A DNA stretch of 64,000 nt from a plasmid (NZ_CP118102.1); one strand, 5' to 3'; shown: positions 1 through 22,579, numbered from the stretch's first letter. The notes: generated from the sequence alone by a model not told the origin. Made by a program: numbers and translations.

Positions 1-81
1 TCCTTTGATGATAAAAAAACTGATTTAAAGCAGATTCAAACATCGGTTACAAAATATGGATTTGGCGTAATAGGAGGATAA
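1..81 (+). CDS. 3' end of an HMA-domain (MerP-like) metal-binding protein; partial, runs off the window start
   Basis: Open frame from base 1 to TAA at 79-81 (...KQIQTSVTKYGFGVIGG*). The hydrophobic/aromatic C-terminus resembles HMA/MerP-type domains. It lies immediately upstream of merA, as in Gram-positive mer operons. Confidence 0.35.
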   Translation, partial: SFDDKKTDLKQIQTSVTKYGFGVIGG

Positions 82-84
82 AAA

Positions 85-1725
85 ATGAAAAAGTACCGTG
101 TACATGTGCAAGGCATGACTTGCACCGGCTGTGAAGAGCACGTTGCAACGGCACTTGAAAGCATTGGAGCTGCGAATATTGAGGCGAGCTTTCGCCGCAA
201 TGAAGCCACGTTTGAATTACCGGATGACGTTGCGATCGAAACAGCCCAAAAAGCCATCAACGAGGCAAAATATCAATCCGGAGATGTGGAAGTTATCGAA
301 TCCCATGATGCTCCGGTTCTCGGCGATGAGGGCGACTATGATTTTCTTATCATCGGTTCCGGTGGGGCAGCGTTTTCCGCCGCGATTCAAGCGGTCGAAC
401 ATGGTGCAAAAGTGGCGATCATCGAGCAAGGAACGGTAGGCGGAACCTGCGTAAATGTGGGCTGCGTGCCATCGAAAACCCTGCTGCGTGCCGGTGAAAT
501 CAATCACTTAGCCAATAATAACCCTTTCTTGGGGCTAACTACATCTGCAGGAACGGTGGATTTGGCTGAGCTAGTGAAACAAAAAAATGAACTTGTAACC
601 GAAATGCGTGAACAAAAGTATGAACATTTGATTGGTGAGTACGGATTTGAACTCATTCGCGGAGAGGCAAAATTCGTTGATGAAAAAACCATCGAGGTCG
701 GTGGACGAAAGCTTACCGCTAAACGATTTTTAATCGCGACAGGAGCTTCACCATCGATTCCGGATATTCCAGGATTAAAAGACGCTAACTATTTAACAAG
801 TACGTCACTGCTTAACCTTAAAGAATTGCCAAAAAGACTTGCTGTGATTGGCTCAGGTTATATTGCACTGGAATTAGGTCAGTTGTTTCATAATTTAGGA
901 TCAGAAGTTACGCTGTTGCAAAGAAGTCCTCGGTTGTTAAAAGAGTATGACCCTGAAATTTCCGAATCTGTGACAAAAGCAGTCACCGAACAAGGGATAA
1001 ATCTGATTACCCGTGTCACGTATGAGCGCGTTGAAACTAATGGGGATTTGAAACAAATTCATATTGCAGTAAACGGCGAAAAGAAAGTCATCGAAGCCGA
1101 GCAGTTGCTTATTGCAACCGGCAGAAAACCGAATACCGAAGCACTGAATCTTCGTGCAGCGAACGTCATTATTGGTACCAAATGCGAAATCGTGGTCGAT
1201 GATTTTTTAAAAACCTCAAATCCTAGGATTTACGCCGCAGGCGATGTGACGATGGGTCCGCAGTTTGTGTACGTGGCTGCCTATGAAGGACGCATCGCGG
1301 CGGATAATGCAGTTGGTGGGTTAGAAAAAAAAGTAAACCTTGAAACTGTTCCGGGGGTCACGTTCACTTCACCTGCGGTGGCGACGGTAGGACTTACGGA
1401 AGAACAAGCCAGGGCAAAAGGATATGATGTGAAGACTTCTGTACTTCCTTTGGATTCGGTGCCTAGAGCACTTGTAAATCGCGAAACAACAGGCGTTTTT
1501 AAATTAGTTGCTGACTCCAAGTCGTTAAAGGTGCTCGGTGTTCATATTGTCGCAGAAAATGCAGGAGACGTGATTTACGCCGCAACACTTGCTGTAAAAT
1601 TCGGTTTAACGGTCGAGGATCTACGCGACAGCCTTGCTCCTTATTTAACGATGGCAGAAGGATTAAAACTGGCAGCGATTACGTTTAATAAAGATGTATC
1701 CAAATTATCCTGTTGCGCTGGGTAA
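85..1725 (+). CDS. merA: mercuric ion reductase MerA (N-terminal HMA domain GMTCxxC, FAD/NAD(P) disulfide oxidoreductase, C-terminal Cys-Cys)
   Basis: 546 aa. MTCTGC metal-binding motif at the N-terminus. [13 protein letters not shown] dinucleotide fold. Redox-active CVNVGC disulfide. C-terminal ...KLSCCAG vicinal cysteines. AGGAGGA RBS 6 nt upstream of ATG. Confidence 0.93.
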
Positions 1726-1778
1726 GATATATTATCTGTGGTAATTAACATGGTTGAGGAGAACGATTTCAATAAACT

Positions 1779-1808
1779 ACAGGCTGCCCAGGCAGCCTGT
1801 TTTTGCGC
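1779..1808 (+). terminator. rho-independent terminator after merA
   Basis: ACAGGCTGCC-cag-GCAGCCTGT perfect hairpin followed by TTTTT. Confidence 0.7.
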
Positions 1809-1837
1809 ATATATGGCTGTTTCTCTTATAAGTATAC

Positions 1838-1875
1838 CTTAGCGTACGTTTTCCGCGTTTTGTTGGCGGTACCCC
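1838..1875 (-). mobile_element. 38-bp Tn3-family (Tn4430-type) terminal inverted repeat; right end of the merA-bearing transposon; GGGG outer end at 1872-1875
   Basis: Plus strand reads CTTAGCGTACGTTTTCCGCGTTTTGTTGGCGGTACCCC. The reverse complement is GGGGTACCGCCAACAAAACGCGGAAAACGTACGCTAAG. It is exactly 38 bp with the GGGG...TAAG ends typical of Tn3-family IRs. It matches the IRs at 14052 and 54430 at 35/38 positions and in the first 14 and last 9 positions respectively. Confidence 0.75.
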
Positions 1876-2012
1876 TAGAAGGTCAGTTTTCCCAGGAAGG
1901 CTTATCAGCTCTTACTGAAGGTTCTGGAGGGAGCCTTGCTACGGAATTGGCGAAACGCTTTGTTGGTAATAATATCGAAGGTGTGGAAAGTGCTGAGTCC
2001 ATTTGGGGCAAG

Positions 2013-2495
2013 ATGACTATATATGCGACTCAGTTTATTCCGGAATCTTCGGTACAAGCTTTGGTACAGGAAGATACTATTAACGACAATTCCAGTGATT
2101 TTGTTGAGGTGGAAGTTCCTTCAGTAGATGTTATTGAAGCGGGATCCCTGCAAGAAGTACTCCTTAAATGGGCAGATGAGTCTATACCAGCTGATCTTCA
2201 TTCACGATTTGAGCAACAAATAAAATATGTTGTGGAGCGAGTAAAGCAAGGTGTAGAGGGCTTAGAGTTCTCCTGCAGTGCTGAGTCTACGGTTCTAAGC
2301 TGGGATTGTTCAAAAGCACCAAGAGATGCGATTGATTTTCGTCGATGGGTTTTCAACTTGACGAATAAGATTGTTCATGAGCAGTCTACATCGAAACAGG
2401 AGAAAATTAGACTTGTGGTCGAAGGTAATAAACCAGCTGCCAAAACGAAGAAGAAATACAACGTGGGAGCTGGCCAGATAGCTTTCAAATTTTGA
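2013..2495 (+). CDS. hypothetical protein; possibly the 3' fragment of a gene disrupted by the transposon end at 1875
   Basis: The ORF track gives 1803-2495, but codons 1838-1875 are the transposon IR read through. The first in-frame ATG after the IR is at 2013 (MTIYATQF...). Low GC, no recognisable motifs, weak RBS. Confidence 0.3.
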   Translation: MTIYATQFIPESSVQALVQEDTINDNSSDFVEVEVPSVDVIEAGSLQEVLLKWADESIPADLHSRFEQQIKYVVERVKQGVEGLEFSCSAESTVLSWDCSKAPRDAIDFRRWVFNLTNKIVHEQSTSKQEKIRLVVEGNKPAAKTKKKYNVGAGQIAFKF

Positions 2496-2554
2496 AACTC
2501 GAATCAGTGATCTGAAAATGAGTTTGATAATACAGAAAATCGTTATAAAAAAAA

Positions 2555-2590
2555 GGTGCCGGCTTGCCGGCATCTTTTTCTGTTTTTATT
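2555..2590 (+). terminator. rho-independent terminator
   Basis: TGCCGG-cttg-CCGGCA hairpin followed by TCTTTTTCTGTTTTT. Confidence 0.75.
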
Positions 2591-2667
2591 TATGAAAAAA
2601 TTTTGTGAAAATCAACTTCCGTTATATGATAAATACAAAATATACGGAAAAAGGGAGATTTTTATCT

Positions 2668-3012
2668 ATGGGAACACAGAAAATTAATCCAACATGCAGA
2701 ATTTGTGAGAAGCTCAATGATGAAATGACGCATTGTGCTGTCTTTGGGGCAATAACACCAGAAAACACTAATAATACAGCGCTAGGGGCGGCTTGTGCTA
2801 AATTAGGTGATTATGTGAGATTGTTACATGCACGTCCTAATGAGTACAATTATGGCTATAGACAAGTAGATAGTGTTGTTGCTGAGAGAGAAGATGAGGA
2901 GCTTTTAGTATTTGACGCAGCTGATGAGGCAGAGGGTTTTCAAATTCAGAATGGCATTACATTAGAGGAATGGGCAAGAATGACCTTCGGCAATGGAAAT
3001 AATCAGGTCTAG
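2668..3012 (+). CDS. hypothetical small protein (Cys-x2-Cys ... His-Cys, possible zinc-binding)
   Basis: ATG at 2668 preceded by AAGGGAGA RBS. The track ORF 2605-3012 has a longer N-terminus without an RBS. CRICEK...THC motif present. Confidence 0.45.
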   Translation: MGTQKINPTCRICEKLNDEMTHCAVFGAITPENTNNTALGAACAKLGDYVRLLHARPNEYNYGYRQVDSVVAEREDEELLVFDAADEAEGFQIQNGITLEEWARMTFGNGNNQV

Positions 3013-3036
3013 AAATAAGATAGAGGGGGATCCAGG

Positions 3037-4827
3037 GTGGCTAAGCTATCAAATCAGAAAAAGGAACGTCAGACGGTAAATGCAATTGAATATCTGGCAA
3101 ATTTACCAGACTCCTATTTGATACCTGATATACCAGTGGGAGATAAGGGGATTTCGTTTGATGGGCATATCTCGGTAATGGAAGATGATTCAGAGACTAA
3201 AGAATCCCTAATTGGAAGAGTACCGGTACAAGTAAAGGGGACTGAAGTAGAGCATTTTACTGAAGGAGTTAGGAGTTTCAGCTTCGAGTTAGCTGATTAT
3301 CGAAATTTTTTTAATTCCGATGGTGTTTTATTACTTGTTGGTGAGGTCAAACCTAACGGAGAAACTAAGCTTTTTTACAAAGCTTTGCTTGCTCTCGAGA
3401 TAAATGAATTACTACAACGTTTTAACAAACAGAAACAGAGGGTTATAGAATTACGACCACTGGATGAAACAAGATTGTATGATGTTTGTTATAAATTTTT
3501 GGCAGAACAAACACTGCAGTCAAGAGAACTAGTGACGCATAAGCCATTTCAAATTGATGACTTTAGAGAGTTAAGGTTGACCAGTATGACATACTCTCCT
3601 TCACTTGATGAATCACTGGAGAAAATTTTTGACCATGACTTTACGATGTATGGTGTTAAAAATCAAGCTCATTTTCCCTTAAAGAGAATAAGAATTGGGT
3701 CAATCAATGTTCGAAAAGATAACGTCATTTTTAGTGATATGAAGAATGAATATAGAATTCTTACTGACATAGAAGTAAAACAGAATGTTACAGCCTACAC
3801 CTTGGAAAAATCATTTATCTTAGAGATAAGCAATAATGATGGTGTATTCAAACTTAATTATGAAATTTTGGACTTTAATACACTTGCTGCTCAACTAAAA
3901 GTTGTTCCTATGTTAATAAGTTTATTTTCAGGTAATAAAATAAGTTTCCGAGGTAATTATATTCAGCTCGATTCTCAAAAAGAAACTTTAGAAGGGTTTC
4001 GAGAGCGATATGAATGTTTGCTCGAGTTGGAGAGAACTTTTGAGCTTCTTGGCATCGACAAAACAACACTTATTGAACAAGAATGTGATGATCAACTAGG
4101 TGAAGAATTAGAGTGGTTAATTCTTAGAGTACTAAAGAATGATGTTAGAGGATTTTCGTTTGGTGAAACAAAGAGAGGAATATTCAACTTTAAAGTCGGA
4201 AAGCACTTAGTATTGTTGTTCTATAATTCCACCGCAAAGCAAAGAATAGTAAGTGTTTTTTCTGATGAGGTTGCTGCTTCTGAATTATACATGGTTGACG
4301 AGGGTGATGGCGAGGAATATCGTCACAGTATTTATATTTCTCTTTCTGAAGAGTCTTTAGCTAAGGGAATCAACATAAATAGTCAAGCAATCTGTAATTC
4401 TTTTGATCAAATTGATCCATTTTCGAGTAATACAGTTTCTGATTTTACTAACAACTTCTGTTTAAAATGTATTAACGCATTTATTAAGTCTGGTAAGAGA
4501 GAACTCTTAGATATAGCTGAGAATATCTATGCAAAATCTAATGGACAGGCAAATGTAAATAATGAATATATTTTGATAAATAAACTACAGATTAAATTAT
4601 GGAGAGATGGGAGTCTAACTGATGAAGAGAATCAGTTACTATATCAAAAAAAAATGCAGGCTATAAAAGAAGAAAACGCAGAGCTATCATTTTGTGTCAG
4701 CGTACTGCTCAAAAATTTAGACGAGAGTCGATTTTTCTTTAACTTGATGGACAAAGAACTACAAGACTTCTATATGATGCTACCAATCTATAAATTGTAT
4801 GAGTCTGTGAATCCTGTAACTGAATGA
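3037..4827 (+). CDS. large hypothetical protein (596 aa) with a candidate N-terminal PD-(D/E)xK-like nuclease motif
   Basis: GTG start with GAGGGGGA RBS. The N-terminal region DKGISFDGHISVMEDDSETKESLIGRVPVQVKG has the D...(D/E)...QVK spacing of restriction-endonuclease-fold proteins (DUF4365-like). The remainder is low-GC with no recognisable domains. Confidence 0.6.
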   Translation: MAKLSNQKKERQTVNAIEYLANLPDSYLIPDIPVGDKGISFDGHISVMEDDSETKESLIGRVPVQVKGTEVEHFTEGVRSFSFELADYRNFFNSDGVLLLVGEVKPNGETKLFYKALLALEINELLQRFNKQKQRVIELRPLDETRLYDVCYKFLAEQTLQSRELVTHKPFQIDDFRELRLTSMTYSPSLDESLEKIFDHDFTMYGVKNQAHFPLKRIRIGSINVRKDNVIFSDMKNEYRILTDIEVKQNVTAYTLEKSFILEISNNDGVFKLNYEILDFNTLAAQLKVVPMLISLFSGNKISFRGNYIQLDSQKETLEGFRERYECLLELERTFELLGIDKTTLIEQECDDQLGEELEWLILRVLKNDVRGFSFGETKRGIFNFKVGKHLVLLFYNSTAKQRIVSVFSDEVAASELYMVDEGDGEEYRHSIYISLSEESLAKGININSQAICNSFDQIDPFSSNTVSDFTNNFCLKCINAFIKSGKRELLDIAENIYAKSNGQANVNNEYILINKLQIKLWRDGSLTDEENQLLYQKKMQAIKEENAELSFCVSVLLKNLDESRFFFNLMDKELQDFYMMLPIYKLYESVNPVTE

Positions 4828-4898
4828 TTAGTCCTTCGGTAAAAAAGCACAAGCCCGCTTTTTGTATGGTAAAGAAAGGTGGGTTTGATTGCATACCC

Positions 4899-4923
4899 GT
4901 GTTTACACTAAGCGTGTTTACAC
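4899..4923. promoter_or_regulatory. two tandem copies of the 10-bp dyad GTGTTTACAC (GTGT-N2-ACAC); candidate operator
   Basis: Copies at 4899-4908 and 4914-4923. A third copy in inverse orientation (GTGTAAACAC, 5393-5402) lies about 115 bp upstream of the PadR start. Confidence 0.35.
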
Positions 4924-5392
4924 GAATAAACTCGACTCATACAGCTTCACCGTCGTTCTTCCTGCCACCGACCACCGTATCCATCCATTGTGTGTCCGGC
5001 TGGCTGCTCCCCAGATAATTCTCTCACTAGATATACAGCTTCGTTACCTTACTTACATCCGCGATTATGTACCTTGAACACAACCCCTTTTTCCTTCTTC
5101 TTTTTTCATTTCTTCTACAATTCTTTGGATTCTTTTGATACCTTTTTAACCAGGTTTTCGCGCAGCGCGCGGCCCCCCCGACGGTCGTAATCTGTTACTG
5201 GATTCGGATTAAGTTACAGTGTTATTATTTGCAGCTAGATACGTACTTAGCAAAAGAATAGATCCGGATTGAGTTGTAGATATAGAGTTCTGCAGCTAGG
5301 TTCGAATCTAGATACAGAAGAAGTAGAAATTGGTATAAAGGGGATAAACAAAAGAGATTGCTCGTATGATGGAGAGTGGGAAGGAAAAGGCG

Positions 5393-5402
5393 TGTAAACA
5401 CG
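5393..5402. promoter_or_regulatory. GTGTAAACAC dyad upstream of the padR-like gene (candidate autoregulatory operator)
   Basis: Inverted copy of the 4899/4914 dyads. Positioned in the putative promoter region of the PadR gene. Confidence 0.3.
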
Positions 5403-5517
5403 GATAGTAATACCACGCTTTGGTTGAGAAATATGTTATAATTAGTACATTATATTGGGGGCCCTGCCCTATTCAATTTAACGGTTAACCCTGATACTTT
5501 GCAAGAGGAGGCTGGTT

Positions 5518-5904
5518 ATGCCTAGAAATGATAATCCCGTCGAAAAAGAGGGGACCTTGGGTTATGTTGTTAAAGTGCAGCAAGTAATCGATTTTGTTGT
5601 TTTATCCGAGTTGCAGGGTGGCAAGCAACTCTATGTAAGTGAGCTGGATAAGAAGATTGCGTCCGTTTTAGGCGGAATTGGCGTGAACGATTCATATCTT
5701 AGTGCTAGGCTCAGAAAGTTGGCCGAGAATGGGCACGTCATTCGTGAGTGGAAAGGTGATGATCGATACAACCGGTATTATAGCATCACTGATTCTGGCC
5801 ACGAATACTTCATTCAAATGTTACGTGATCTACCTGAACGAGTCACAATGGCAAAGAAGGTCTATTCTAACTTTGAAAAATACATGAAGAAGTTTGATGT
5901 ATAA
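5518..5904 (+). CDS. PadR-family transcriptional regulator
   Basis: 128 aa. Winged-helix pattern ...LYVSEL..., ...SYLSARLRKLAENGHVIREWKGDDRYNRYYSITDSGHEYF matches the PadR recognition helix and wing. AAGAGGAGG RBS. Confidence 0.65.
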   Translation: MPRNDNPVEKEGTLGYVVKVQQVIDFVVLSELQGGKQLYVSELDKKIASVLGGIGVNDSYLSARLRKLAENGHVIREWKGDDRYNRYYSITDSGHEYFIQMLRDLPERVTMAKKVYSNFEKYMKKFDV

Positions 5905-5980
5905 GAGGTGTACTAAAAACTGAAATCAGTTTCCCTCCAGATCGGATGTGACTGATGTATTAATGTCGGGAGTGAAAAAT

Positions 5981-6643
5981 ATGGACGAGCTGAATTACCC
6001 AGATGTTGTTCGGAGGCTAAAGGAGTCATTTCCAGAAGGAACAGTCAAGCTGCGATCCGACACACAAAAAGCGTATATTCCGAATCAGATATATACTGAC
6101 AGGCTGGAAGCTGCAACGGAGGGGCAGTGGAGCAAAACCATTAAAGATATCGAAATCAATTTAGAGCAGCAGTACGTCAAGGTTATAGTTTCGATTTCTA
6201 TAAGTGATTACACCAGAGATGGATTCGGATTTGCTTATATTGATAAGGATGGCCAGGGACGTCCGAGAGTCTCCAACGCACTTGATCAGGCTGCCGCCAG
6301 CGCTTTTGTTGAAGCGGTAGATAGTTGGCAAATGGGATGGAAGGATCTTGCTCCATATAAGGATTGGGGAGATAATCCAGCTTTGCGTCATCTTATAGGC
6401 AGTGATCCTGCTCCAGAAGGACAGAAACGAGTTGTCCAATCCAAATCAAGGGTTGAACGAAATTGTATAATGACAGGCTGCGGAAAATCATTATCAGCTG
6501 ATGAATGGGAGCTGCTCAAACAAGTTCCGAATCTCAACCGCGATAAAATGGTTTATTGCTTTGATCATCTCCCAGATCATTTAAAGCGGAAAATCCCTGA
6601 TAAAAAACTAGAAGCATTCTTACAACATCGAGAATCAGAATAA
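5981..6643 (+). CDS. Rad52/22-family single-strand annealing protein (Sak-like) with a C-terminal Cys4 zinc-ribbon-like tail
   Basis: Start at ATG 5981 (MDELNYPDVV) with GGGAGTGA RBS; the track ORF starts at 5948. Segment RRLKESFPEGTVKLRSDTQKAYIPNQIYTDRLEAATEGQWS matches the Rad52 N-terminal annealing-domain pattern. C-terminal CIMTGCGK...CFDH. Confidence 0.55.
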   Translation: MDELNYPDVVRRLKESFPEGTVKLRSDTQKAYIPNQIYTDRLEAATEGQWSKTIKDIEINLEQQYVKVIVSISISDYTRDGFGFAYIDKDGQGRPRVSNALDQAAASAFVEAVDSWQMGWKDLAPYKDWGDNPALRHLIGSDPAPEGQKRVVQSKSRVERNCIMTGCGKSLSADEWELLKQVPNLNRDKMVYCFDHLPDHLKRKIPDKKLEAFLQHRESE

Positions 6644-6867
6644 GAAGCAATATAAATACTGTCAACGGATAATTGAGTAATATTTCATGGTTTTATCTAG
6701 CACCAAGAGATCCTATGTTATGTCACATTAGCTACAATTCATTTTATAAAGAAATGGATCAATTAATTAAAATTAAAAGAGCAGATCTTTATCGATTATA
6801 GCCAACTTATTTTACCCGACGGCAACGAGGTACTTACAGCGATTGGTAGGATCATGGAGGAATTCGT

Positions 6868-7560
6868 TTGAAGAATTTAAATGTTATACTGCTGCGTACT
6901 TTTCTTGGACGTTTACTAGCCTTGCTAGTATGCGTTATCTTGTTAATATCATTGTTTTATTATCCGCTTGCTTCCATTAAAGGTTTATTTTTGTTTTTCT
7001 TTTTGTTTTTTTTATACTTGATCTTCTTCTCTGCAGCTATTCGTGAATGTGATGAAGAAGATGAAAAAAAGTTTGAAAACAGATATGCCATTCACTTTGT
7101 GAGCAAAGTACATAATGCTGATCAACAAGGAAGGATTCCTCTTTACCCCAGTGCGGGAGATAGCAAGGGCAAACCTAGGGTTTGGTTCCATCTGTCAACT
7201 TCGGTCGATTCAACTGATCCTTCTGAAAAATCTTTTTTTAGAAATCATGTACAGTGGAAGGAATTGCGTAGCTATAAAGTAATTATCCCTTGGAAAGAAC
7301 TTAGGCAATCAGTAAAGGAACAATCAAGAAATATTAAGGTGAGACCTAGTGATGGCTCTATTGCTATAGAAGGTACAGATCCTATTTGGGTAAAGAATGC
7401 TAAGATTGAAACTGAGTTCTACTGGTATCAAGATCGCATTGGATTTAAATATATCCTGCAGTATTTAGTCGGTATTAACATATTAAGTTATATTTTTTAC
7501 ATCATCTATTTCTCAGATCAATATTTTTATAAACTAAGAAAGATATTAGCAAAGAGATGA
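6868..7560 (+). CDS. hypothetical membrane protein (two N-terminal TM helices)
   Basis: TTG start after GGAGGAATTCG. Hydrophobic stretches LLALLVCVILLISLFYY and LFLFFFLFFLYLIFFSAAI. Low GC. Confidence 0.45.
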   Translation: MKNLNVILLRTFLGRLLALLVCVILLISLFYYPLASIKGLFLFFFLFFLYLIFFSAAIRECDEEDEKKFENRYAIHFVSKVHNADQQGRIPLYPSAGDSKGKPRVWFHLSTSVDSTDPSEKSFFRNHVQWKELRSYKVIIPWKELRQSVKEQSRNIKVRPSDGSIAIEGTDPIWVKNAKIETEFYWYQDRIGFKYILQYLVGINILSYIFYIIYFSDQYFYKLRKILAKR

Positions 7561-7766
7561 AGTACGATATCTTGAACAAGAACATTCAACAGTCGCATTA
7601 ATATGCGGCTTTTTCTCGTGGTTCAATCAATATATTATCTTGTAAGTAAGTAGGTAGGTACTTAATTTTCATTTAACAAAAAGTTTTGCAATTAGATAGT
7701 CTTATTGTACTATATATGTATATTAGTATATTAACTAACATACAATAATTGTTGAGGGGCGGTTCT

Positions 7767-9686
7767 GTGGAAGAGTTTATTCAAAGAGCACTCGGGGCTG
7801 GGGGACATCTGTCGAAGCTAGTAAAAGGTTATTCTCCACGTTCACCGCAGATGCTCATATCAAACAAAGTGGGGGCAGCGTTAGAGGGAGAAAAGCATCT
7901 ATTGGCTGAAGCAGGTACAGGTACAGGGAAGTCGCTTGGCTATTTGATACCTGCAGCCAAGTGGGCTGTTGAAAACAACAAGACTGTTATTGTTTGTACC
8001 CACACGATCCCGCTAATGACTCAGATAGTAAATGTAGAACTGCCTCGTGTACAACAGATTTTAAAAATGGAGCATCAAAATCTTAAGTATCAACTTGTTA
8101 AGGGAAAGTCACATTACGTTTGCTACTCGAAGCTTGAGAATTTGTGGCAAGAAACGCTACGGAGCATAAATGAAGAAGCTAAAACAGTGCAGAAGATCTT
8201 CAAAAAAGTGACCCGAGAGTATGTAAATGATCGTACAGGGCTTGGATTCGATGTAGAAGATAGCTTATGGAAGAAAATATCTGCGAGCAATTGTCCAGCG
8301 ATTAATAAGCCTGAGTCATGCGTAATTGAAGAGCTGAAAGAAAAAATGATTCAATCCCATATCATTGTTACAAATCATGCATATTTCTTCTCAGATCTTG
8401 CCATTCGGCGGAAGACAGGAAATGGTTCTCTTCCAAATTACGATGCCGTCATTTTCGATGAGGCTCATGAAATGGAAGATGTCTGCTGCCAAATCTTTGA
8501 GAAGTCTGCTGACATAAACCAGTTTGAGTCTTTATTCGATCAATTGTTCCAACGTGACATCTTTAAAGAATTAGATCATGGTGCGCAGCTTAAGCTATCT
8601 CAACTTCGCCAGGACATCCACCGTAACCTTGACCAAGTATTTGCTGAGATTGGAAATGAAATGGGGAACAAAGCATATCAGCTCTTAGACAAACAGATTG
8701 ATGTATCAGAGGCTTGCTCTTTAATCAAGGATTTCTTGGAGACATTAAAAAGTATGAATGTCCGTGGTGCTTCCGATATTCTTGATCAGCTCTTTGAGTA
8801 TAATGATGACCTTGATTTCATTAGTAACAATGCTAAACGATCCTGGGCATACTGGGCTACTGTTCGTGGCCGTGATCAGATCACCCTGCATGCTGCTCCA
8901 CTGTTTCCAAAAGTTGTACTGGCTTCTAGCTTATTCGATAAAGTGCCTGTTATTCTAACAAGCGCTACGATGTCCAACAGCGGGAACTTTTCTTTCTTTG
9001 CTGGACGGGTTGGAGTCAAAGAGTATGATTCAGTCGTTGTCGGTAGTCCGTTTGATTACATAAACAAGACGATGATTATCGTACCGGATGATGCACCTGA
9101 ACCAAACAGTCCTGGTTTCAACGGATATACTGCAGAAAAGCTAGAGGAGATAACGATGTATACTGGCGGTCGTATGCTTGTCCTTTTTACAAGTTTTGAT
9201 GCGATGAACCAGGTCGCTCGTTCTTTCCAAAAGTATTGTAGTGAAGTGGGTTATCATCTATTGGTTCAATATCCTGGATGTAATCGTGAAGAACTCATCC
9301 AACAACTAAAAAATGAGCCAAGAACAATCGTATTTGGGTCATCTAGTTTCTGGACCGGTGTTGATGTCGCAGGAGAAGCTCTTACTACAGTAGTGATCCC
9401 TAGATTACCTTTTCCACATCCCGACGATCCTTTAATAAAAGCACAAATTGAGCTTCTTGAGAAAGCCAATCGAAGCAGCTTTTTCGACTATATGTTTCCC
9501 AAGATGATATTTAAACTTAAACAGGGTTTTGGCCGTTTAAATCGCTCAGTTCATTGCCAAGGAGCTGTTATCATCTTGGATAACCGAATGAGAACGAAGC
9601 GATATAAAGGACTTATTATTAAATCACTACCGAAGTGTCAATATTCATCTACAGTATCGGATTTAGTACATATCCTGCCGGTATAG
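7767..9686 (+). CDS. dinG: DinG/Rad3(XPD)-family ATP-dependent DNA helicase, without an exonuclease domain
   Basis: Walker A AEAGTGTGKSLGYLIPA (DinG motif I). DEAH box VIFDEAHEM. VTNHAYFFSDL. C-terminal helicase motif GFGRLNRSVHCQGAVIILDNR. Probable GTG start at 7767 after GAGGGG; the track start is 7749. Confidence 0.8.
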   Translation: MEEFIQRALGAGGHLSKLVKGYSPRSPQMLISNKVGAALEGEKHLLAEAGTGTGKSLGYLIPAAKWAVENNKTVIVCTHTIPLMTQIVNVELPRVQQILKMEHQNLKYQLVKGKSHYVCYSKLENLWQETLRSINEEAKTVQKIFKKVTREYVNDRTGLGFDVEDSLWKKISASNCPAINKPESCVIEELKEKMIQSHIIVTNHAYFFSDLAIRRKTGNGSLPNYDAVIFDEAHEMEDVCCQIFEKSADINQFESLFDQLFQRDIFKELDHGAQLKLSQLRQDIHRNLDQVFAEIGNEMGNKAYQLLDKQIDVSEACSLIKDFLETLKSMNVRGASDILDQLFEYNDDLDFISNNAKRSWAYWATVRGRDQITLHAAPLFPKVVLASSLFDKVPVILTSATMSNSGNFSFFAGRVGVKEYDSVVVGSPFDYINKTMIIVPDDAPEPNSPGFNGYTAEKLEEITMYTGGRMLVLFTSFDAMNQVARSFQKYCSEVGYHLLVQYPGCNREELIQQLKNEPRTIVFGSSSFWTGVDVAGEALTTVVIPRLPFPHPDDPLIKAQIELLEKANRSSFFDYMFPKMIFKLKQGFGRLNRSVHCQGAVIILDNRMRTKRYKGLIIKSLPKCQYSSTVSDLVHILPV

Positions 9687-9705
9687 TGGAAAGGAGCTGG
9701 CGTCT

Positions 9706-10425
9706 ATGATGGGAAGAGCACATTTAGTTATCAGTACGGGGCTATCCTTATCTGCACTCCAACTAGCTGATCAAGAAATTACAATACCCGTAATAGTAGT
9801 TGCTGTTTTAAGTTCACTACTTCCTGATATCGATGAACCAAATTCTCTTTTAGTTTCAAGAGCAATTCCAAAAACAGTAATTCGCACATTCCAGCTGCTT
9901 CTCTTATTGGCTGCAGCTGCTGTCATCTTTCTTGGAGAAGCGTATTCTCCGTGGAATTATATGTTGGCCATAGCTGCAGCAATCATTACCTTTCTCCCGA
10001 ATCGAACATTGAAGAATGTCATTATGATTTTAACGGGAATCATACTGATTGCTTTCGGCAGCCAAATCTCGCCTTGGAACTATATTGGAGGTTCCTTACT
10101 TATACTTGTGTCGTTCCTGCCGCACCGAGGATTAACTCATACAATCTATGGATTGGTTGGTTGGACCTTGATCTTATATTTGACTACAGGTGATATATCT
10201 ATCTGGCTAGCTGGAGGGTTATCCTACATGCTTCATCTACTTGCAGATGCATTAACGAACCGTGGTATACGAATTCTCCCACCATTTAAGTACGTACTGA
10301 GATTTCGGATTATGAGTACAGGAAGTTTCAGAGGTTCCCTAGTTGAATATCTTTGCATGGGAGTGACACTTGGTGTGGTCTGGCTCACATTTTTCTTAGA
10401 TAAAAATTTATTTACTGGAGGCTAA
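9706..10425 (+). CDS. DUF457/YdjM-family membrane-bound metal-dependent hydrolase
   Basis: 239 aa multi-TM protein. N-terminal MMGRAHLVISTGLSLSAL and HRGLTHTIYGLVGW histidine motifs typical of the family. GAAAGGAG RBS. Start is 20 nt after the dinG stop, indicating an operon. Confidence 0.5.
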   Translation: MMGRAHLVISTGLSLSALQLADQEITIPVIVVAVLSSLLPDIDEPNSLLVSRAIPKTVIRTFQLLLLLAAAAVIFLGEAYSPWNYMLAIAAAIITFLPNRTLKNVIMILTGIILIAFGSQISPWNYIGGSLLILVSFLPHRGLTHTIYGLVGWTLILYLTTGDISIWLAGGLSYMLHLLADALTNRGIRILPPFKYVLRFRIMSTGSFRGSLVEYLCMGVTLGVVWLTFFLDKNLFTGG

Positions 10426-10428
10426 ATT

Positions 10429-10695
10429 ATGAGTCTTGATCTTCAAATTATTAGAATCAATTTATATCCCGTTTTTAAGGAATTAAAGGCTAAATACGGA
10501 CTAACAAAGAGAGAAACACAAGTGATTGAAGCTTTAACTATCTACGGTGAAAACAACCATAATCTAGGGAGCAGATTAAAAGTTAGTGAGAACACAATAA
10601 AAAATCATATGTCCCGAACATTGGTTAAGACCAAACTTAGCTCTGCCCGTGAACTTCAAGCTCTTATTCTAAGATCCTTAATGAGTTTTGAATAA
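10429..10695 (+). CDS. LuxR/GerE-type HTH transcriptional regulator (small, single domain)
   Basis: LTKRETQVIEAL...LGSRLKVSENTIKNHMSRTLVKTKLSSARELQALIL matches the LuxR-family HTH. GGAGG RBS. Starts 4 nt after the preceding gene. Confidence 0.6.
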   Translation: MSLDLQIIRINLYPVFKELKAKYGLTKRETQVIEALTIYGENNHNLGSRLKVSENTIKNHMSRTLVKTKLSSARELQALILRSLMSFE

Positions 10696-10785
10696 AGTAA
10701 CTGCTACAGTAATCACATCCTTAAACCAGCTAAATACATAATTAGTAGATGTTAAGAACACATTCAGGGAAGGAGACCTCTTAAA

Positions 10786-11253
10786 ATGTCATATATTCAT
10801 TTATCCGTACAAGAGCTACAGCGATTACTTTCTTTGTTTCCTGCTTCATTAAAAACAGAAGATACATCTCTTTATAACAAGTTGCATGATTGCCTCGAAA
10901 AAAATAAAGAAAGAAGTAAATATGATTTTCTCATTGAGCAATTTTCAGAGTTCCGATTATCTCAAATATTCGAAATTCCTGAACACTTGATGGATCTAGA
11001 AGTAGGGTACTATTTTGGTCAGTTTGAAGGGAAAACTTATCGCAGCGTGGCAAAGTATTTAAAGCGTAATGACTATACCATTATGCGAGACTTAATGGAG
11101 ATTACCGTATATAAGCTAGGTAATATTCGTTATATTGGACCCATCGGAAGATCTGCTATCTTTGATGCCTTAGATCCCTATTTAATACCTAAATATTTTC
11201 CAACAGATGTTACTACACGGTCTGAACACACCACACACAAGAGTGTTATCTGA
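10786..11253 (+). CDS. hypothetical protein
   Basis: 155 aa, GGGAAGGAG RBS, no recognisable motifs. Confidence 0.4.
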   Translation: MSYIHLSVQELQRLLSLFPASLKTEDTSLYNKLHDCLEKNKERSKYDFLIEQFSEFRLSQIFEIPEHLMDLEVGYYFGQFEGKTYRSVAKYLKRNDYTIMRDLMEITVYKLGNIRYIGPIGRSAIFDALDPYLIPKYFPTDVTTRSEHTTHKSVI

Positions 11254-11336
11254 TATATTTGTTTATGAGAGAAGGGTTCTCGAGTCTCATCGGTCTTAGT
11301 TATAAGTAACATACATACATTTAGGAGGAAATTCAA

Positions 11337-11507
11337 ATGAAACCTAATGAGATTACAGAAGAAAAGCCCAAAACAACTAAAAATCTTGATAAAAATGACT
11401 TCTTAAAGAGAATAAAGAGCATTAAATCTGAGGATTTGATAGGCATTATCGGTATGACCATCGCGTTAGCTACTGCTTTTATTCTGATTATCGGAGTTTT
11501 TATGTAG
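11337..11507 (+). CDS. small hypothetical membrane protein (56 aa, C-terminal TM helix)
   Basis: Not in the ORF track (under 60 aa). AGGAGGAAATTCAA-ATG. Sequence MKPNEITEEKPKTTKNLDKNDFLKRIKSIKSEDLIGIIGMTIALATAFILIIGVFM. Confidence 0.3.
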   Translation: MKPNEITEEKPKTTKNLDKNDFLKRIKSIKSEDLIGIIGMTIALATAFILIIGVFM

Positions 11508-11949
11508 AGGCTTGGAAGAAATGTTTTTGAGCATTACGTTATATACAGTAGTAGCGAACATCAAATAAAGCAAAGTCGGTAAGTAGATAAAGAAGGGGGA
11601 ATTTTGGAAACAATCTCGAAGGATTACTTAAGGTCAGCATAAATAAGGTTCAGCCGTTTGGGGAAGGGTGAGACACACCTTTCTCCATCCTTAAAACTAA
11701 CTGCTCATTTATAAGGCGTATAGTTTACACCGTAGAGCTTCACTCAGGTTGAATCATATGCTATACTTACTTCATTATTAGTACTTAATGTTTTTCTTTG
11801 CCGCTATAGTTCGGTAAAGATAGGGGAAACGGTATTATACCGTCAAAATATGAGGCTACCTATTAGCCGTTGGAAACAGGAGACAACCTTTGGTGTGTCT
11901 TTTTTTGTTTTCAACGGCTATTTTTGTGCCTAATTGAGGAGGAATAAAA

Positions 11950-12291
11950 ATGCGTATTAACATGAACACTCTTAAGCAAATCCTGCCCTGTCTACCAGAT
12001 GGACAAACCACCTCAAAAACACTATCAGTTGGAATCTTCCGTGCTATTGAGGCTGCCCATGAATTGGTTGATAGCAGTGAAGTTGACTGGAATTCGTTTA
12101 CGCTTGCGGAAGCTGAAGAAGCTTTAGATCATGCTATGGCGTACGAGTGCGATGAACACATCGAGCATGGGGATTATGCCAACATCAACAGTGGTAATGC
12201 AATTCACGAATACCTGCATAGTCATAATCTCATATTTCAGTTGAAGCGGTCTGCTCCTGAAAAACAGACAGCCGCAATTCAATTCTTTTGA
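11950..12291 (+). CDS. hypothetical protein
   Basis: 113 aa, GAGGAGGAATAAAA-ATG strong RBS. Confidence 0.45.
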   Translation: MRINMNTLKQILPCLPDGQTTSKTLSVGIFRAIEAAHELVDSSEVDWNSFTLAEAEEALDHAMAYECDEHIEHGDYANINSGNAIHEYLHSHNLIFQLKRSAPEKQTAAIQFF

Positions 12292-12476
12292 GAGGTGTGA
12301 GGAGAATATGGAGAAGTCCTACTACTGTTCAGAACAGGTTGGACAAATGCAGGCTACCTACGACTCTTTAGTCATGCTGAAGATGATCGAGGTTGCTGGA
12401 TGTGATATCGTGAACAACCCAGTCAATTACTACTGTTATGATTGGGGGGATCAATATCCCGTATTTGTTACATGCA

Positions 12477-13799
12477 TTAAAAGAGTATTTGGAGGTTGGT
12501 GGCGCAGCTGGTGGAGTTTAACGTGCTGTTGGCGGTGCTTGCGTTGTCGTTCGTTGAAGAGTTGTCAGCATTGGAGGTATTGGTGGTAGTATTATCGCCT
12601 GTCGACGCTGTTGCTGTAGGCGTAGAGGTGTTATCACCTGTGGTGGCAGTGGCACTGGTTGTGGATGAATTATCGCCAGTGGTTGAGGAACTGTCACCTG
12701 CACTCGATGTAGCATCTGTATCCGATGAGTTTGTTGCAGGACCACTTGTTGTGGTTGACGTATTATCACCATTCGTTGATGTGCTATCACCTGAGCTGCT
12801 GGTGGCGTCCGTATCCGATGAGTTGGCCGCAGGACCACTACTTGTGGTGGAGGTATTATCTCCATTGGTGGAGGTACTATCACCCGATGACGAAGTGCTG
12901 GTGGCGTCTGATGCGTTGTTCGAGCCGCTAGTTGAGGTTAATGTATCGGTCACGGTAGCCGAACTATCATTATCACTGTTGTTGGTTGCACCACTGGTGG
13001 AATTAACCGTTTCGTTAATGGTAGAGTCACTATCGGTATTAGAGGTATTGTTCGAGCCGCTTGTGCTTGTTAATGTGTCATTGACAGTAGCCGAACTATC
13101 ATTATCACTGTTGTTGGTTGCACCACTGGTGGAATTAACCGTTTCGTTAATGGTAGAGTCACTATCGGTATTAGAGGTATTGTTCGAGCCGCTTGTGCTT
13201 GTTAATGTGTCATTGACAGTAGCCGAACTATCATTATCACTGGTGTTGGTTGCACCACTGGTGGAATTAACCGTTTCGTTAATGGTAGAGTCACTATCGG
13301 TATTAGAGGTATTGTTCGAGCCGCTTGTGCTTGTTAATGTGTCATTGACAGTAGCCGAACTATCGTTATCACTGGTGTTGGTTGCACCACTGGTGGAATT
13401 AACCGTTTCGTTAATGGTAGAGTCACTATCGGTATTAGTGGCGTTCGTTGCCGTACTTTGGTTATCGACTTTTTCGAAAATTTTCGAGTCGCTGTCGCTT
13501 TCCGAATGATTTTTAGCGCCACTTTCGCTTGTAAGTTGATCGTTAATGGTGGATCCGCTGTCGTTATCATTTGTGCTTGTGGCATTACTAATGGCATGAG
13601 CTTGGTTTTTAGCAAGGTTTTTAGCAAGGTTTTTAGCAAGGCTTTTGGCAATCGCCTTGTCGATCGCCTTGGCTAAGGAAATCGTCACTTTGACAGGCGG
13701 CTTGCGGTGTTTGTGTTTTTTACGATGACAGCTACACGCTGTTTGCTGGGAAGATTTTTTTTTGCAGGTTGTTTTTCTTTTTCTAAATTCCTTTGTCAT
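12477..13799 (-). CDS. Ser/Thr/Asn/Asp-rich tandem-repeat protein with a basic Cys/His/Lys-rich N-terminus (spore-coat/CotG-like or surface protein candidate)
   Basis: AAAGGAGAGG RBS 8 nt upstream of ATG on the minus strand. N-terminus MTKEFRKRKTTCKKKSSQQTACSCHRKKHKHRKPP, then LAKNLAKNLAKN. Four 44-aa repeats TSTSGSNNTSNTDSDSTINETVNSTSGATNTSDNDSSATVNDTL, then an S/T/G/D-rich tail. No signal peptide seen. Confidence 0.55.
   Translation of the reverse strand: MTKEFRKRKTTCKKKSSQQTACSCHRKKHKHRKPPVKVTISLAKAIDKAIAKSLAKNLAKNLAKNQAHAISNATSTNDNDSGSTINDQLTSESGAKNHSESDSDSKIFEKVDNQSTATNATNTDSDSTINETVNSTSGATNTSDNDSSATVNDTLTSTSGSNNTSNTDSDSTINETVNSTSGATNTSDNDSSATVNDTLTSTSGSNNTSNTDSDSTINETVNSTSGATNNSDNDSSATVNDTLTSTSGSNNTSNTDSDSTINETVNSTSGATNNSDNDSSATVTDTLTSTSGSNNASDATSTSSSGDSTSTNGDNTSTTSSGPAANSSDTDATSSSGDSTSTNGDNTSTTTSGPATNSSDTDATSSAGDSSSTTGDNSSTTSATATTGDNTSTPTATASTGDNTTTNTSNADNSSTNDNASTANSTLNSTSCATNLQILF
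12925..13445. repeat. 132-bp tandem repeat x about 4, inside the repeat-protein gene
   Basis: The CCGAACTATC anchor recurs at 12959, 13091, 13223 and 13355, exactly 132 bp apart, with near-identical units. Confidence 0.85.
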
Positions 13800-14051
13800 T
13801 ACTTCTATCCTCTCCTTTGATGGGGGTAGTTGACTACCCTTTAGTATATTTGCCTGCTATTAACTCGGAAACGGCGAATCTACCTATAAATTTTTGTCCA
13901 TCTATCAAATACACAGAAAATGGGCAAAAAAAGACCTTGTCTCGCTCTCGGCAAGACAAGGTAAGGTCCATGACAAAGGAGGTGTAGCTACCCTATGTTT
14001 GATATATGCAGGAGGACGGGTTTTCGCTCCCCTTGCCCTGGACAGTCAACC

Positions 14052-14089
14052 GGGGTATTGCCAACAAAACGCGGAAAGCGTACGCTAAG
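14052..14089 (+). mobile_element. 38-bp Tn3-family (Tn4430-type) terminal inverted repeat; GGGG outer end at 14052 facing the 12.2-kb segment, TAAG inner end towards the core
   Basis: GGGGTATTGCCAACAAAACGCGGAAAGCGTACGCTAAG. It matches the reverse complement of 1838-1875 at 35/38 positions. It is followed by only about 240 bp of low-GC DNA before the high-GC core resumes, so it looks like a solo or truncated element end. Confidence 0.7.
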
Positions 14090-14368
14090 AAACCTTGAAA
14101 TTTATTAGCCTCAATCTATCCAAATGATTCCATCCAAAAGAAGCAAACCCTCCCTACTTTGCAAGGGCTAGGGGGATTACCAAGAATATAAAAGAGAAAA
14201 GAATCGGAAATAAGATCAACCTCAAATAGTCGGTGATTCCTTAAGTATAAGAAACGTTGGCTTTTTTATATAGAAAAATCCTTAGAGTATATTTTCGTCA
14301 AAATGTTGGATGGACCCCTAAAGGGAAAAAAAGGGGAGCCGTGGGGGCTCCCGCAAAGAATCCCGTTT

Positions 14369-15706
14369 CTATTGGTTTGCTCTAGCAAGCATTTTTTGCA
14401 TTTCCGTCACGAATTCTTCCGAAGCGGAATCGATGGAGGCTGCGCCGAAGGCGATTTTCTCGCTCGTCAATTTCAGAAGCTTGATGAATTCGTTGTCATA
14501 AGGGAAGTGCTCGTATCCGTTGCCCGTCGAAATCTTCGTCGCGAGCGAGATGTAGTCGTACAGAATTTTGTCGATCGGAGTCGATTCCGCGGACAGCGCG
14601 TCGCGGATTTTCGCCGAAGGCGGAACGCCGCGGGTGCTGCCCAGGATAGCGGCCGCTTCCGGATCGTTGACCATGAAGTCCATGAACTTGGCGACTTCCT
14701 CCGGATATTTCGTTCCTTCATAGGAAGTAATGAATTGTCCGGACACCGGAGGGCTCATGCCGTTGCCGGCAGGACCGGCAGGGTTCGGCAGCAGGCCGAG
14801 CTGGTCTTCCGTCAAAGCTTGATAACCGAAAATTTGCGAAGCGGATGCGCCCTGGATGGCGACTTGCCCTTTCACGATCAACGATTTGTCGACGGCATCC
14901 GGCGGATTGGCGACTTGAACTTCCGCAGGTACGATCGCTCCGGCTTGGCGAAGCTCGTCCCACATCGAGAACCAGTTGACCACGTCCTGCTTGTCGAACT
15001 TGAGCTCGCCGCTGCGATATAGCTCTTTGCCGTGGGCGGCCAGGTAAGTGGTGAAGGACGCGTTGTCGCTGGACAGATCGTAAGAGCCGTAGAAGCCTTT
15101 GCCAAGCTTCTCGCTGATTTGCAGCGCGCTGTTCTTGAAGTCGTCGAACGTCCAGCTTTCGCCGTTCGGGACCGGAACGCCGGCTTTGTTGAACATCGTC
15201 GCGTTGAACAGCAAGGCTGTCTGGCTGACGCCCAGCGTGACGCCGTACAATTTGCCGTCCGCGGTCGCTTCGTTGATCAAGCTTTGATCGAAGTCTTCCA
15301 GGCGGATGGCATTGCCGACATACGGCTGCAAGTCGAGCAGCGCGTTGCGTCCGACGTACTCCATGATGTTGCCGCCCATCTGGATCAGATCCGGAGCGTT
15401 GCCCGCGGCGATCTGCGTGTTCAGCTTGTCGAAGTAGCCGTCCATGCCGGAATATTCGGCCGTGATTTTGATGTTCGGATTCTGTTTCTCGAACAGCTCG
15501 ATGGCGGCAAGCGTTTTATCGTGTCTCTCTTGCGACCCCCACCATGCCATTCTGAGTTCAACGTTGCTCGGTTTCTCCGAAGCTTTGGCCGAAGCGCTGG
15601 GACTGGCTGCGCCAGAGCCCGACTTGGAGTCGTTCGCGTTGCCGCAAGCGGACAGCAGAAGCGCGCATGTCGCTAGCGCGGCGAACAAAGGTTTTTTGCG
15701 TAACAT
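14369..15706 (-). CDS. ABC transporter extracellular solute-binding lipoprotein (family 1, carbohydrate)
   Basis: GGAGG RBS 9 nt upstream of ATG (MLRKKPLFAALATCALLLSAC, lipobox LSAC). The track ORF extends to 15745. Family-1 SBP length and pattern. Confidence 0.85.
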   Translation of the reverse strand: MLRKKPLFAALATCALLLSACGNANDSKSGSGAASPSASAKASEKPSNVELRMAWWGSQERHDKTLAAIELFEKQNPNIKITAEYSGMDGYFDKLNTQIAAGNAPDLIQMGGNIMEYVGRNALLDLQPYVGNAIRLEDFDQSLINEATADGKLYGVTLGVSQTALLFNATMFNKAGVPVPNGESWTFDDFKNSALQISEKLGKGFYGSYDLSSDNASFTTYLAAHGKELYRSGELKFDKQDVVNWFSMWDELRQAGAIVPAEVQVANPPDAVDKSLIVKGQVAIQGASASQIFGYQALTEDQLGLLPNPAGPAGNGMSPPVSGQFITSYEGTKYPEEVAKFMDFMVNDPEAAAILGSTRGVPPSAKIRDALSAESTPIDKILYDYISLATKISTGNGYEHFPYDNEFIKLLKLTSEKIAFGAASIDSASEEFVTEMQKMLARANQ

Positions 15707-16074
15707 GGAATCGGACCTCCTTTTTTTAACCTGCATGTTCATCATAAGAACTATTCGGTCCCGCGAACATAAAGAAAAGTAAGGGGAACGTATAAAAATG
15801 TTAGGTGTTGCCGAAGACGCAGAAAGAAAAGGCGTCCCTTGGTCCGTTTCGGACGACGGAAGGGACGCCTCTGTTACTCCAATGTACTTTCTTATAGTGC
15901 GTGTTCAAAAAGTCGGCTTTTCAGGACCGAGAAGGTTGGATGAAGCTTAGGGATTGAGGAGCGGAGCGTAGGAAAACCTACGTGAGCACCGGAAAGCCCG
16001 GCTGAATTCAAGATTCGATGTCGAATTCTTCCTGCTCTACTTCGTCATCAAAAGCTGACTTTTTGAACATCCTC

Positions 16075-17879: not shown

Positions 17880-18096
17880 GCTGAATTTCGCTTCCTTTCC
17901 ATCATTCTGATCCATCTAGTATAGCTTCGGACAGAAAAGATGAGAAGCGGATTCCGCAAAATCCAGGCGCCGTTAACATGATACAAACGAGGCATTTCTT
18001 ACATTAATCAACGGACTATTCCTCGATGCGCTGAATTTTCCGCACACTTGTAATAAAATGGCATCATTGCGCAGCTAAAACCGGGGGTGGATACCG

Positions 18097-19434: not shown

Positions 19435-19471
19435 ATGCTCGCGAGAAAAAACGGTCAAGGGGCTGTTCGAC

Positions 19472-20821: not shown

Positions 20822-20871
20822 AATGACTCTTTGATCGTGTTAGGATATACGTATTCTAATGTTGGGAGTGA

Positions 20872-22567: not shown

Positions 22568-22579
22568 TAGGGGGATTGG

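Follow-up and report, generated by a model that had tools for sequence, protein, structure and literature searches.

The two 38-bp Tn3-type terminal inverted repeats (IRs) that face each other across 12.2 kb of plasmid NZ_CP118102.1 are the products of two unrelated histories on one plasmid-type backbone. In the 64,000-nucleotide stretch analyzed here (the window), the repeat at 1838-1875 (IR-A) is the right end of a mercury-resistance (mer) transposon. By sequence comparison, the repeat at 14052-14089 (IR-A′) appears to be a decayed IR-A-type end fossilised in a second transposon, and not a working terminus. The full form of this second transposon is designated TnB and its deletion derivative TnD; the window holds TnD, split into two parts around 40 kb of high-GC DNA resembling a Cohnella chromosome, and this whole interrupts the plasmid backbone. 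We hold the architecture and the identity of the two IRs with high confidence. The explanation as a whole, which blends this architecture with a formation pathway, is likely. The features are as follows.

1 to 1875, plus strand: right 1.9 kb of the mer transposon, with the 3′ end of merP (1-81), merA (85-1725), and the terminal IR.
1838 to 1875, minus strand: IR-A, right terminal IR of the mer transposon, with its GGGG outer end at 1875; the same 38-mer bounds mer transposons with target-site duplications (TSDs) elsewhere.
1876 to 12494, plus strand: backbone segment 1, starting with the 3′ fragment of a helicase gene (1876-2495) and ending with the first 187 nt (12308-12494) of a gene for a 243-aa hypothetical protein.
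12495 to 14318, minus strand: right part of TnD, holding the first 435 codons of a repeat-rich 556-aa gene (13799 down to 12495) together with the right-end region.
14052 to 14089, plus strand: IR-A′, a degenerate IR-A copy in opposite orientation to the true terminal IR (IR-B-R), with the same flanks in all copies.
14281 to 14318, minus strand: IR-B-R, the true right terminal IR of TnB and TnD, with its GGGG end at 14318 adjoining the Cohnella-like DNA; it is terminal, with TSDs, in the Cedars and Brevibacillus copies.
14319 to 54429, no strand assigned: high-GC Cohnella-like chromosomal block of 40,111 bp (55-68% GC), identified by GC profile, Pfam content, and collinear native contigs.
54430 to 55509, minus strand: left part of TnD, comprising IR-B-L (54430-54467, GGGG at 54430), the scar of the tnpI-tnpA deletion at ~54581/2, a gene for a 114-aa protein (54785-55129), and the final stretch (codons 436-556; 55144-55509) of the 556-aa gene.
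55510 to 64000, plus strand: backbone segment 2, which completes the 243-aa gene and further encodes Prok-E2_D, ThiF-like, PAPS-reductase, HicB, and tyrosine recombinase proteins.

Both repeats were re-read from the sequence. IR-A (GGGGTACCGCCAACAAAACGCGGAAAACGTACGCTAAG) and IR-A′ (GGGGTATTGCCAACAAAACGCGGAAAGCGTACGCTAAG) are identical at 35 of 38 positions, and their GGGG ends, at 1875 and 14052, point inward, toward each other, as a preliminary description of this DNA had reported. When up to three mismatches to the 38-bp IR were allowed, two matches were found in the window and none in 100 shuffled sequences, so chance is no explanation for the pair, which is also the longest inverted repeat of the window. 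A relaxed Tn3-type pattern (GGGG-N29-CTAAG) matched four times against 0.31 expected and added IR-B-R and IR-B-L (54430-54467, plus strand) to the two repeats previously noted. The GC content is 33-47% at 1-14 kb and 54.5-64 kb and 55-68% in the 40-kb block between; the low-GC tail after IR-A′ spans ~229 bp (14090-14318), beyond which GC exceeds 50%. The preliminary description had taken the repeat at 14052 for the left terminus of an element extending rightward. This assignment has to be withdrawn: the repeat is internal and invariant in every copy found, and the true terminus is the opposite-facing repeat at 14281-14318, from which the element runs leftward. IR-A′ was taken for a live end because the genuine terminal IR, 191 bp away, had gone unnoticed.

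We compared the left side of the window with other sequences (comparison loci carry L numbers). Positions 1-1876 matched L004 9917-11792, the right-hand portion of a complete element, with 100% identity over 1,876 bp and matched L005, a contig of SRR23080378, equally well; this bears out the earlier placement of the right terminus of a leftward-lying mer transposon at 1838-1875. The complete element (L004 4640-11791; 7,152 bp) has a perfect IR-A at both ends, a TSD of TTTAT, and the genes tnpA (985 aa), tnpR (193 aa), merR, merE, merT, merP, and merA in this order. In this copy, the transposase TnpA contains DDE_Tnp_Tn3 and DUF4158 domains and the resolvase TnpR contains Resolvase and HTH_7 domains; both genes lie outside the window. 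The open reading frame (ORF) at 85-1725 encodes MerA (Pfam HMA, Pyr_redox_2, and Pyr_redox_dim), and an exact-protein look-up returned the same MerA on two other contigs. Copies with 96-97% identity are present in Paenibacillus gyeongsangnamensis and Paenibacillus sp. DMB5, with TSDs of ATCCC (L017/L022) and AAATA (L028), and the mer transposon of L028 also has a perfect IR pair. In the window copy, the right flank, TAGAA, is visible. The read set SRR23080378 also yields the mer transposon as a 7,136-bp contig. With terminal IRs, transposase and resolvase genes, and 5-bp TSDs all found in identical or related copies, the left element is a Tn3-family transposon.

A family of class II mercury-resistance transposons, TnMERI1/Tn5084, has been described in Bacillus and relatives (PMC6920998). 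The window element resembles TnMERI1, Tn5084, and Tn5085 in its tnpA-tnpR-(res)-mer order, its 38-bp GGGG...TAAG IRs, and its 5-bp TSD. In a Tn5084-like 11.5-kb element of Bacillus cereus pJ51_2, the IR matches IR-A at 33-34 of 38 positions, and TnpA is 70% identical. However, the nucleotide identity to this group is only ~68%, and the element is 7.15 kb long compared with 11.5-14.2 kb; it also lacks merB1/B2/B3, merR2, and the group II intron of that group, and its copies were found almost only in Paenibacillus. The low nucleotide identity and the lack of merB rule it out as a TnMERI1/Tn5084 isoform and leave it a distant relative only. It is a compact, narrow-spectrum (merRETPA), unnamed Tn3-family element of the Paenibacillaceae.

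To the right of this transposon, window positions 1873-12494 matched a Paenibacillus urinalis plasmid, NZ_CP118110 (L002 7316-17937), with 99.99% identity over 10,622 bp. The mer transposon interrupts a 941-aa DEAD/DEAH helicase gene, of which the P. urinalis plasmid carries the intact version: its empty site has the sequence ...CCCAAGCCT/TAGAAGGTC, where the window has ...CCCC/TAGAAGGTC. The ORF at 1803-2495, earlier suspected to be a gene fragment cut by the merA transposon, indeed contains the 3′ 620 nt of this helicase gene. The bulk of the 12.2-kb segment (1876-12494) is thus a remnant of target DNA, namely, plasmid, which was one of three explanations offered before. The view that the segment is not itself a Tn3-type transposon also holds, as it consists of 10.6 kb of plasmid backbone and 1.56 kb of TnD. 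At 12494/12495, the P. urinalis match stops and a 100% match to the transposon of the Paenibacillus sp. Cedars plasmid starts. The backbone resumes at 55510, 3 bp (ACG) past the point at which it stopped, and continues with matches to L002 17941-20727 (100%) and 33845-39554 (99.98%). The backbone site is uninterrupted in six other assemblies (L043-L047 and L049). The 243-aa gene disrupted here had no Pfam match.

The identity of the right element was taken from its full copy, TnB, in the Cedars plasmid (L001). TnB is 6.8 kb long, ends in IR-B-L and IR-B-R, is flanked by the TSD AGGTA, and encodes a 989-aa TnpA (DDE_Tnp_Tn3), a 305-aa tyrosine recombinase, TnpI (Phage_integrase), and two passenger proteins of 556 and 114 aa, neither of which had a Pfam match. 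Its TnpA aligns end to end with Tn4430 TnpA (PDB 7QD4/7QD8; 1,330 bits against 7QD8) and is 78.6% identical to TnpA of the mer transposon, which makes the earlier label "Tn4430-type" reasonable for the whole group. The full copy is like Tn4430 in having tnpI directly upstream of tnpA, 38-bp IRs, and a 5-bp TSD, and differs from it in its 6.8-kb length, its two passenger genes (one of them repeat rich), and its internal relic IR. TnpA homology and the adjacent TnpI were both found in the Cedars copy, and the right element is therefore classed, on sequence criteria, as a putative Tn4430-like (TnpI-type) transposon; both genes are deleted in the window.

TnD, a 2.9-kb derivative without tnpI and tnpA, is present both in the window and in a Brevibacillus plasmid (L003). 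The Brevibacillus copy has a TSD of its own, TTATA, and no transposase gene, and was therefore mobilised in trans. In the window, the right part of TnD is 100% identical to L001 6024-4199 and 99.3% identical to the Brevibacillus copy; the left part is 100% identical to L001 11032-10880 plus 6953-6025 and to L003. Positions 55509 and 12495 are adjacent in L001, L003, and L036, so that the break in the window falls between codons 435 and 436 of the 556-aa gene. Compared with Tn4430, then, the copy in the window is missing both tnpI and tnpA and lies in two parts. TnD also resembles TIMEs (inverted-repeat miniature elements derived from Tn3) and other nonautonomous Tn3-derived elements (PMC4133298) in being transposase-less, in having Tn3-type IRs, and in having moved with a 5-bp TSD, and differs from TIMEs in that it is not miniature, having 2.9 kb and passenger genes. 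The pairing of each IR with a partner through 5-bp TSDs, proposed as a check in the preliminary description, was found for the mer transposon and for TnB and TnD copies elsewhere; the window TnD has nonmatching flanks (CTGTA before the left IR and TAAAG after the right IR), and IR-A′ has no TSD. TnB is an unnamed TnpI-type Tn3-family element of the Paenibacillaceae with a trans-mobilised deletion derivative.

Three further observations concern the structure of this element. The deletion that made TnD begins 64 bp upstream of the tnpI start and reaches to within 39 nt of the tnpA stop (54581-54582 compared with L001 6953/10880), leaving part of the sequence upstream of tnpI in place. The deleted interval is where Tn4430-type elements carry their resolution site. 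At the same scar, the Brevibacillus TnD has a different 249-bp sequence. The 556-aa gene consists mostly of tandem repeats (12658-13573 and also 13599-13646), namely, five 132-bp (44-aa) units, three 93-bp units, and 12-bp repeats.

Next, the distribution of IR-A and IR-A′ was determined by an exact-pattern scan across 185,579 species genomes (a species-representative collection in which the source genome is not included). The scan returned 25 stretches in 16 genomes, almost all of them Paenibacillus. Canonical IR-A copies lie at the ends of transposons and of a 230-bp miniature element in Paenibacillus alvei, with 5-bp TSDs, and the IR-A′ variant occurs only within TnB and TnD. In the literature, the IR sequence matched only cloning primers. 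IR-A′ had identical flanks (caacc/aaaccttgaa) in L001, L003, L014, L021, L034, and L037 and was never found standalone; its hosts are the Cedars and Brevibacillus plasmids, Paenibacillus pasadenensis, Paenibacillus timonensis, Paenibacillus azoreducens, and one Logan contig. The idea that the IR-like sequences belong to a host repeat family, dispersed in the genome and having nothing to do with transposition, which the preliminary description had named as the outcome that would overturn it, gained no supporting point. The small number of stretches and their association with transposons and miniature elements, or with the inside of TnB, speak against it, and the scan refutes it; its probability is negligible.

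A second possibility is that IR-A and IR-A′ are the remains of a single mer-transposon event, such as a rearranged cointegrate or an intramolecular inversion, with the 12.2 kb trapped between the two ends of the transposon. The 35/38 identity and the facing outer ends are what would be expected on either side of target DNA. Against this, IR-A′ is found with its three specific substitutions and the same flanks inside TnB or TnD in at least five other genomes or plasmids, and no mer transposon was seen in the sequence fetched around those copies. Moreover, no mer-transposon sequence adjoins 14052, and the Cedars transposon matches 12495-14318 at 100% identity. A single event is refuted by the finding of a conserved IR-A′ in other TnB copies, and we regard it as very unlikely.

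The third possibility concerns the 267-bp unit at 14052-14318, in which IR-A′ and IR-B-R are inverted with their outer ends outward. Could IR-A′ be the working left end of a TIME-like element of ~267 bp, inserted beside the right end of the larger transposon or forming it? The arrangement of the IRs fits such an element, the size is close to that of known TIMEs (262 bp; PMC4133298), and P. alvei carries at least 5-6 copies of its IR-A-bounded 230-bp miniature element with 5-bp TSDs. However, the unit has no TSD: its flanks are CAACC and TAAAG, and the left flank is invariant in all seven copies, whereas the right flank changes with the large element. Its two IRs are identical at only 24 of 38 positions, no standalone unit was found in the scanned species genomes, and its interior has no homology to other IR-A elements, including that of P. 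alvei. A TIME-like element is thus disfavoured as a current activity, and we consider this possibility unlikely. These results are consistent with the reading of IR-A′ as a relic within TnB and TnD.

Two related arrangements were seen in other paenibacilli. In P. alvei DSM 29 (L016, L019, L024, L025, L031, and L033), the 230-bp miniature element pairs IR-A with a divergent IR (GGGGTAGAGACAGCAAAACGCGAAAATCGTACGCTAAC). Five copies, on chromosome contigs and plasmids, have the TSDs TTTTA, ATATA, AATAT, ATCAA, and TATAA; the ends of a sixth (L031) were not resolved. This seems to be a previously undescribed TIME family from a Gram-positive host. In Paenibacillus sp. LHD-117 (L015 5155-5403), 174 bp separate IR-A from an IR-B-like repeat (GGGGTCCAGCCAAAATTTTAACTAAAATATACGCTAAG) in direct orientation, a second case in which ends of the two IR types stand side by side.

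It is also conceivable, though improbable, that IR-A′ is not inert and that, at 35/38 identity, it is a near-cognate site for the transposase of the mer transposon, so that DNA bearing TnB or TnD would respond to two transposases. If so, IR-A′ could act as a target-immunity decoy, or form with the mer right end at 1875 an "inside-out" pair that could drive replicon fusion, and such fusion would move the rest of the plasmid and the 40 kb of Cohnella-like DNA between genera.

We then examined the sequence between the two backbone segments. Positions 12495-55509 form a single 43,015-bp insertion in the 243-aa backbone gene and are a circular permutation of TnD plus 40.1 kb of high-GC DNA. The high-GC block encodes, by Pfam, sugar and amino-acid ABC transporters, a CYP102-type P450-reductase fusion, an M28 peptidase, OYE, SDR, and KAS III proteins, an amidase, an AraC regulator, and an MFS/TetR pair, and it ends with a UbiA/heme-O-synthase-like gene truncated at 54429. 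The nearest relatives of the block are Cohnella-like: its substrate-binding protein (SBP) is 99% identical to a metagenome protein and 90% identical to that of Cohnella cellulosilytica. A look-up of the 458-aa SBP ORF returned nothing. Native contigs L006, L039, and L041 are collinear with the block and show an empty site at each of its ends. At the left end (S1), homology to the native contigs stops at 14317-14321, in an intergenic region between SBP and permease genes (native ...CCATCC/TAAAGGG). At the right end (S2), it stops at 54429, inside a gene for a 307-aa UbiA/heme-O-synthase-like protein (native ...CCTGTA/CGTCG); here L041 is 98.6% identical over 12 kb. S1 and S2 lie on one native contig in the same orientation. 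Since the flanks differ (TAAAG and CTGTA), the structure is not a simple insertion into a 40-kb circle. The block was rejected as known plasmid cargo, as PLSDB matches covered only short conserved gene fragments.

Within the block, two features were recorded in passing. Positions 23861-27109 encode a self-sufficient P450-flavodoxin-FAD/NAD reductase fusion of 1,082 aa (CYP102/BM3-like), next to a TetR regulator. Two tandem arrays (22532-23151 and 39390-40008) have a 50-51-bp period and ~9-10 copies each at 60-93% identity, and related but diverged arrays occupy the same loci in L006 and L039.

Because the insertion joins DNA of very different composition, its reality was weighed against an assembly chimera of Cohnella and Paenibacillus plasmid reads. 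A chimera would account for the GC jump from ~40% to ~62% at the IR-B ends and for the fact that no PLSDB plasmid has the high-GC DNA. In contrast, the joints between transposon ends and targets are precise to the base, with empty sites elsewhere, and the exchange at the two backbone junctions is reciprocal, at a cost of only 3 bp. The empty-site comparison proposed earlier was carried out, and empty sites were found in other assemblies for every junction. Independent short-read contigs span three of the four junctions of the insert at 100% identity. The joint of IR-B-R to S1 is spanned by L037 (SRR23080378; window 13409-22611; 9.2 kb), and that of backbone to TnD at the left by L048 (SRR23080378; window 7715-12984; 5.3 kb). 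The joint of S2 to IR-B-L occurs in nine Logan contigs, and in L036 it is followed by uninterrupted TnD. With the spanned junctions and the empty sites together, an assembly chimera is very unlikely. The blocks, the precise junctions, and the empty sites are thus matters of observation.

L036 (SRR29842777_393) represents a sister structure from another sample. It matches window positions 23097-28137, 49082-55509, and 12495-12755 and has lost 21 kb from within the Cohnella-like DNA, at a CTGCAG microhomology, by which the M28 peptidase gene is fused to a permease gene. Its TnD gene also carries a further inserted Tn3-type IR (GGGGTAGAGTCCTGAAAATGCGG...).

The history of the fusion would, in outline, run as follows, with the order of events and the enzymes inferred. 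The mer transposon inserted into the DEAD/DEAH helicase gene of a backbone common to P. urinalis plasmids. Separately, TnD would have transposed into a Cohnella-like chromosome, in the UbiA gene, giving the joint of CTGTA to its left IR. A circle of TnD plus the adjacent 40 kb may then have arisen by deletion-type intramolecular replicative transposition to the SBP/permease intergenic site or, alternatively, by homologous recombination between two TnD copies. In Tn3-family biology, nonmatching end flanks are expected from the first of these processes, in which the excised circle comprises one copy and the adjacent DNA, and also from recombination between two directly repeated copies. Finally, the circle and the plasmid would have been joined by a single reciprocal illegitimate exchange of the end-joining type, giving a plasmid-prime. 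An equivalent route would be for the plasmid to integrate into one chromosomal TnD copy and then be excised, F-prime-like, via the other copy. We give this specific pathway about an even chance.

Several orders and mechanisms were eliminated. Fusion of the plasmid into TnD before the UbiA-site joint was formed is ruled out by L036, which has the same CTGTA joint with TnD uninterrupted; the S2 joint therefore predates the plasmid fusion, and the order of events is fixed only to this extent. Inspection of the junctions between backbone and TnD revealed no shared or recombinase core, IR, TSD, or microhomology, and a site-specific or transposase-mediated origin of these junctions was rejected. The preliminary description had considered that a second transposon inserted into the target by transposition; the junction at 12494/12495 lies inside a passenger gene and has neither IR nor TSD, so that this part falls. 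Of its "rearranged cointegrate," a replicon fusion bracketed by transposon ends stands, and the two full copies do not. A Tn3-type cointegrate, with two direct copies, was rejected as well: one copy is present, split at 55509/12495, and the backbone junctions lack IRs.

The structure resembles an R-prime or F-prime plasmid in that the same backbone continues on both sides of an insert that is collinear with native contigs L006, L039, and L041. As in R-prime or F-prime formation and in transposon-mediated deletions and fusions, the two ends of a replicative transposon mark the limits of the block, and their flanks do not match. Unlike in transposon-mediated fusions, the plasmid is joined within a passenger gene through an exchange without homology, and neither the IRs nor a second copy is involved. 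Plasmid-prime-like capture of chromosomal DNA is the most likely account of the structure.

Several points weigh against this account. The illegitimate recombination that it invokes is a diagnosis by exclusion. The right backbone junction (55509/55510) was not covered by any independent contig. Look-ups of the fused ORFs at the junction of the mer transposon with the helicase gene and at 12494/12495 returned nothing. The window does not reach the left end of the mer transposon and covers only part of the molecule, so that the TSD of this mer copy and the plasmid or integrated state of the molecule are out of view. As for IR-A′, it may derive from a nested insertion or be half of an old miniature element.

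The backbone genes on either side of the insertion were also surveyed. Regions 55510-59500 and 2605-4827 encode Prok-E2_D, ThiF-like (E1-like), PAPS-reductase-family, and DUF4365 proteins and large helicases, and look like a ubiquitin-like-conjugation or defence-type cluster. The 243-aa gene broken by the 43-kb insertion sits directly upstream of the E2-like gene. In addition, the P. urinalis plasmid carries a 13.1-kb Tn3-family transposon (L002 20728-33844) with tnpR, tnpA, hxlA, hxlB, zwf, gnd, and pgi (ribulose monophosphate/pentose-phosphate genes); its IR begins GGGGTACGACCGAGG..., its TSD is TAACT, and the same site is empty in the window (58291-58296).

All the components described here belong to known kinds, and the structure is an ordinary product of mobile-element activity that does not challenge current models of the Tn3 family. 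For annotation, the window illustrates a trap: an IR oriented like a terminus may be a fossil within another transposon, and the more divergent neighbouring IR may be the real end. The analysis also documents two unnamed Tn3-family elements of the Paenibacillaceae and places 40 kb of the ordinary metabolic chromosome of a high-GC, Cohnella-like bacterium on a plasmid backbone that is 99.98-100% identical to that of a P. urinalis isolate from human blood. If the molecule is a transferable plasmid, it would be a natural plasmid-prime crossing genus boundaries.

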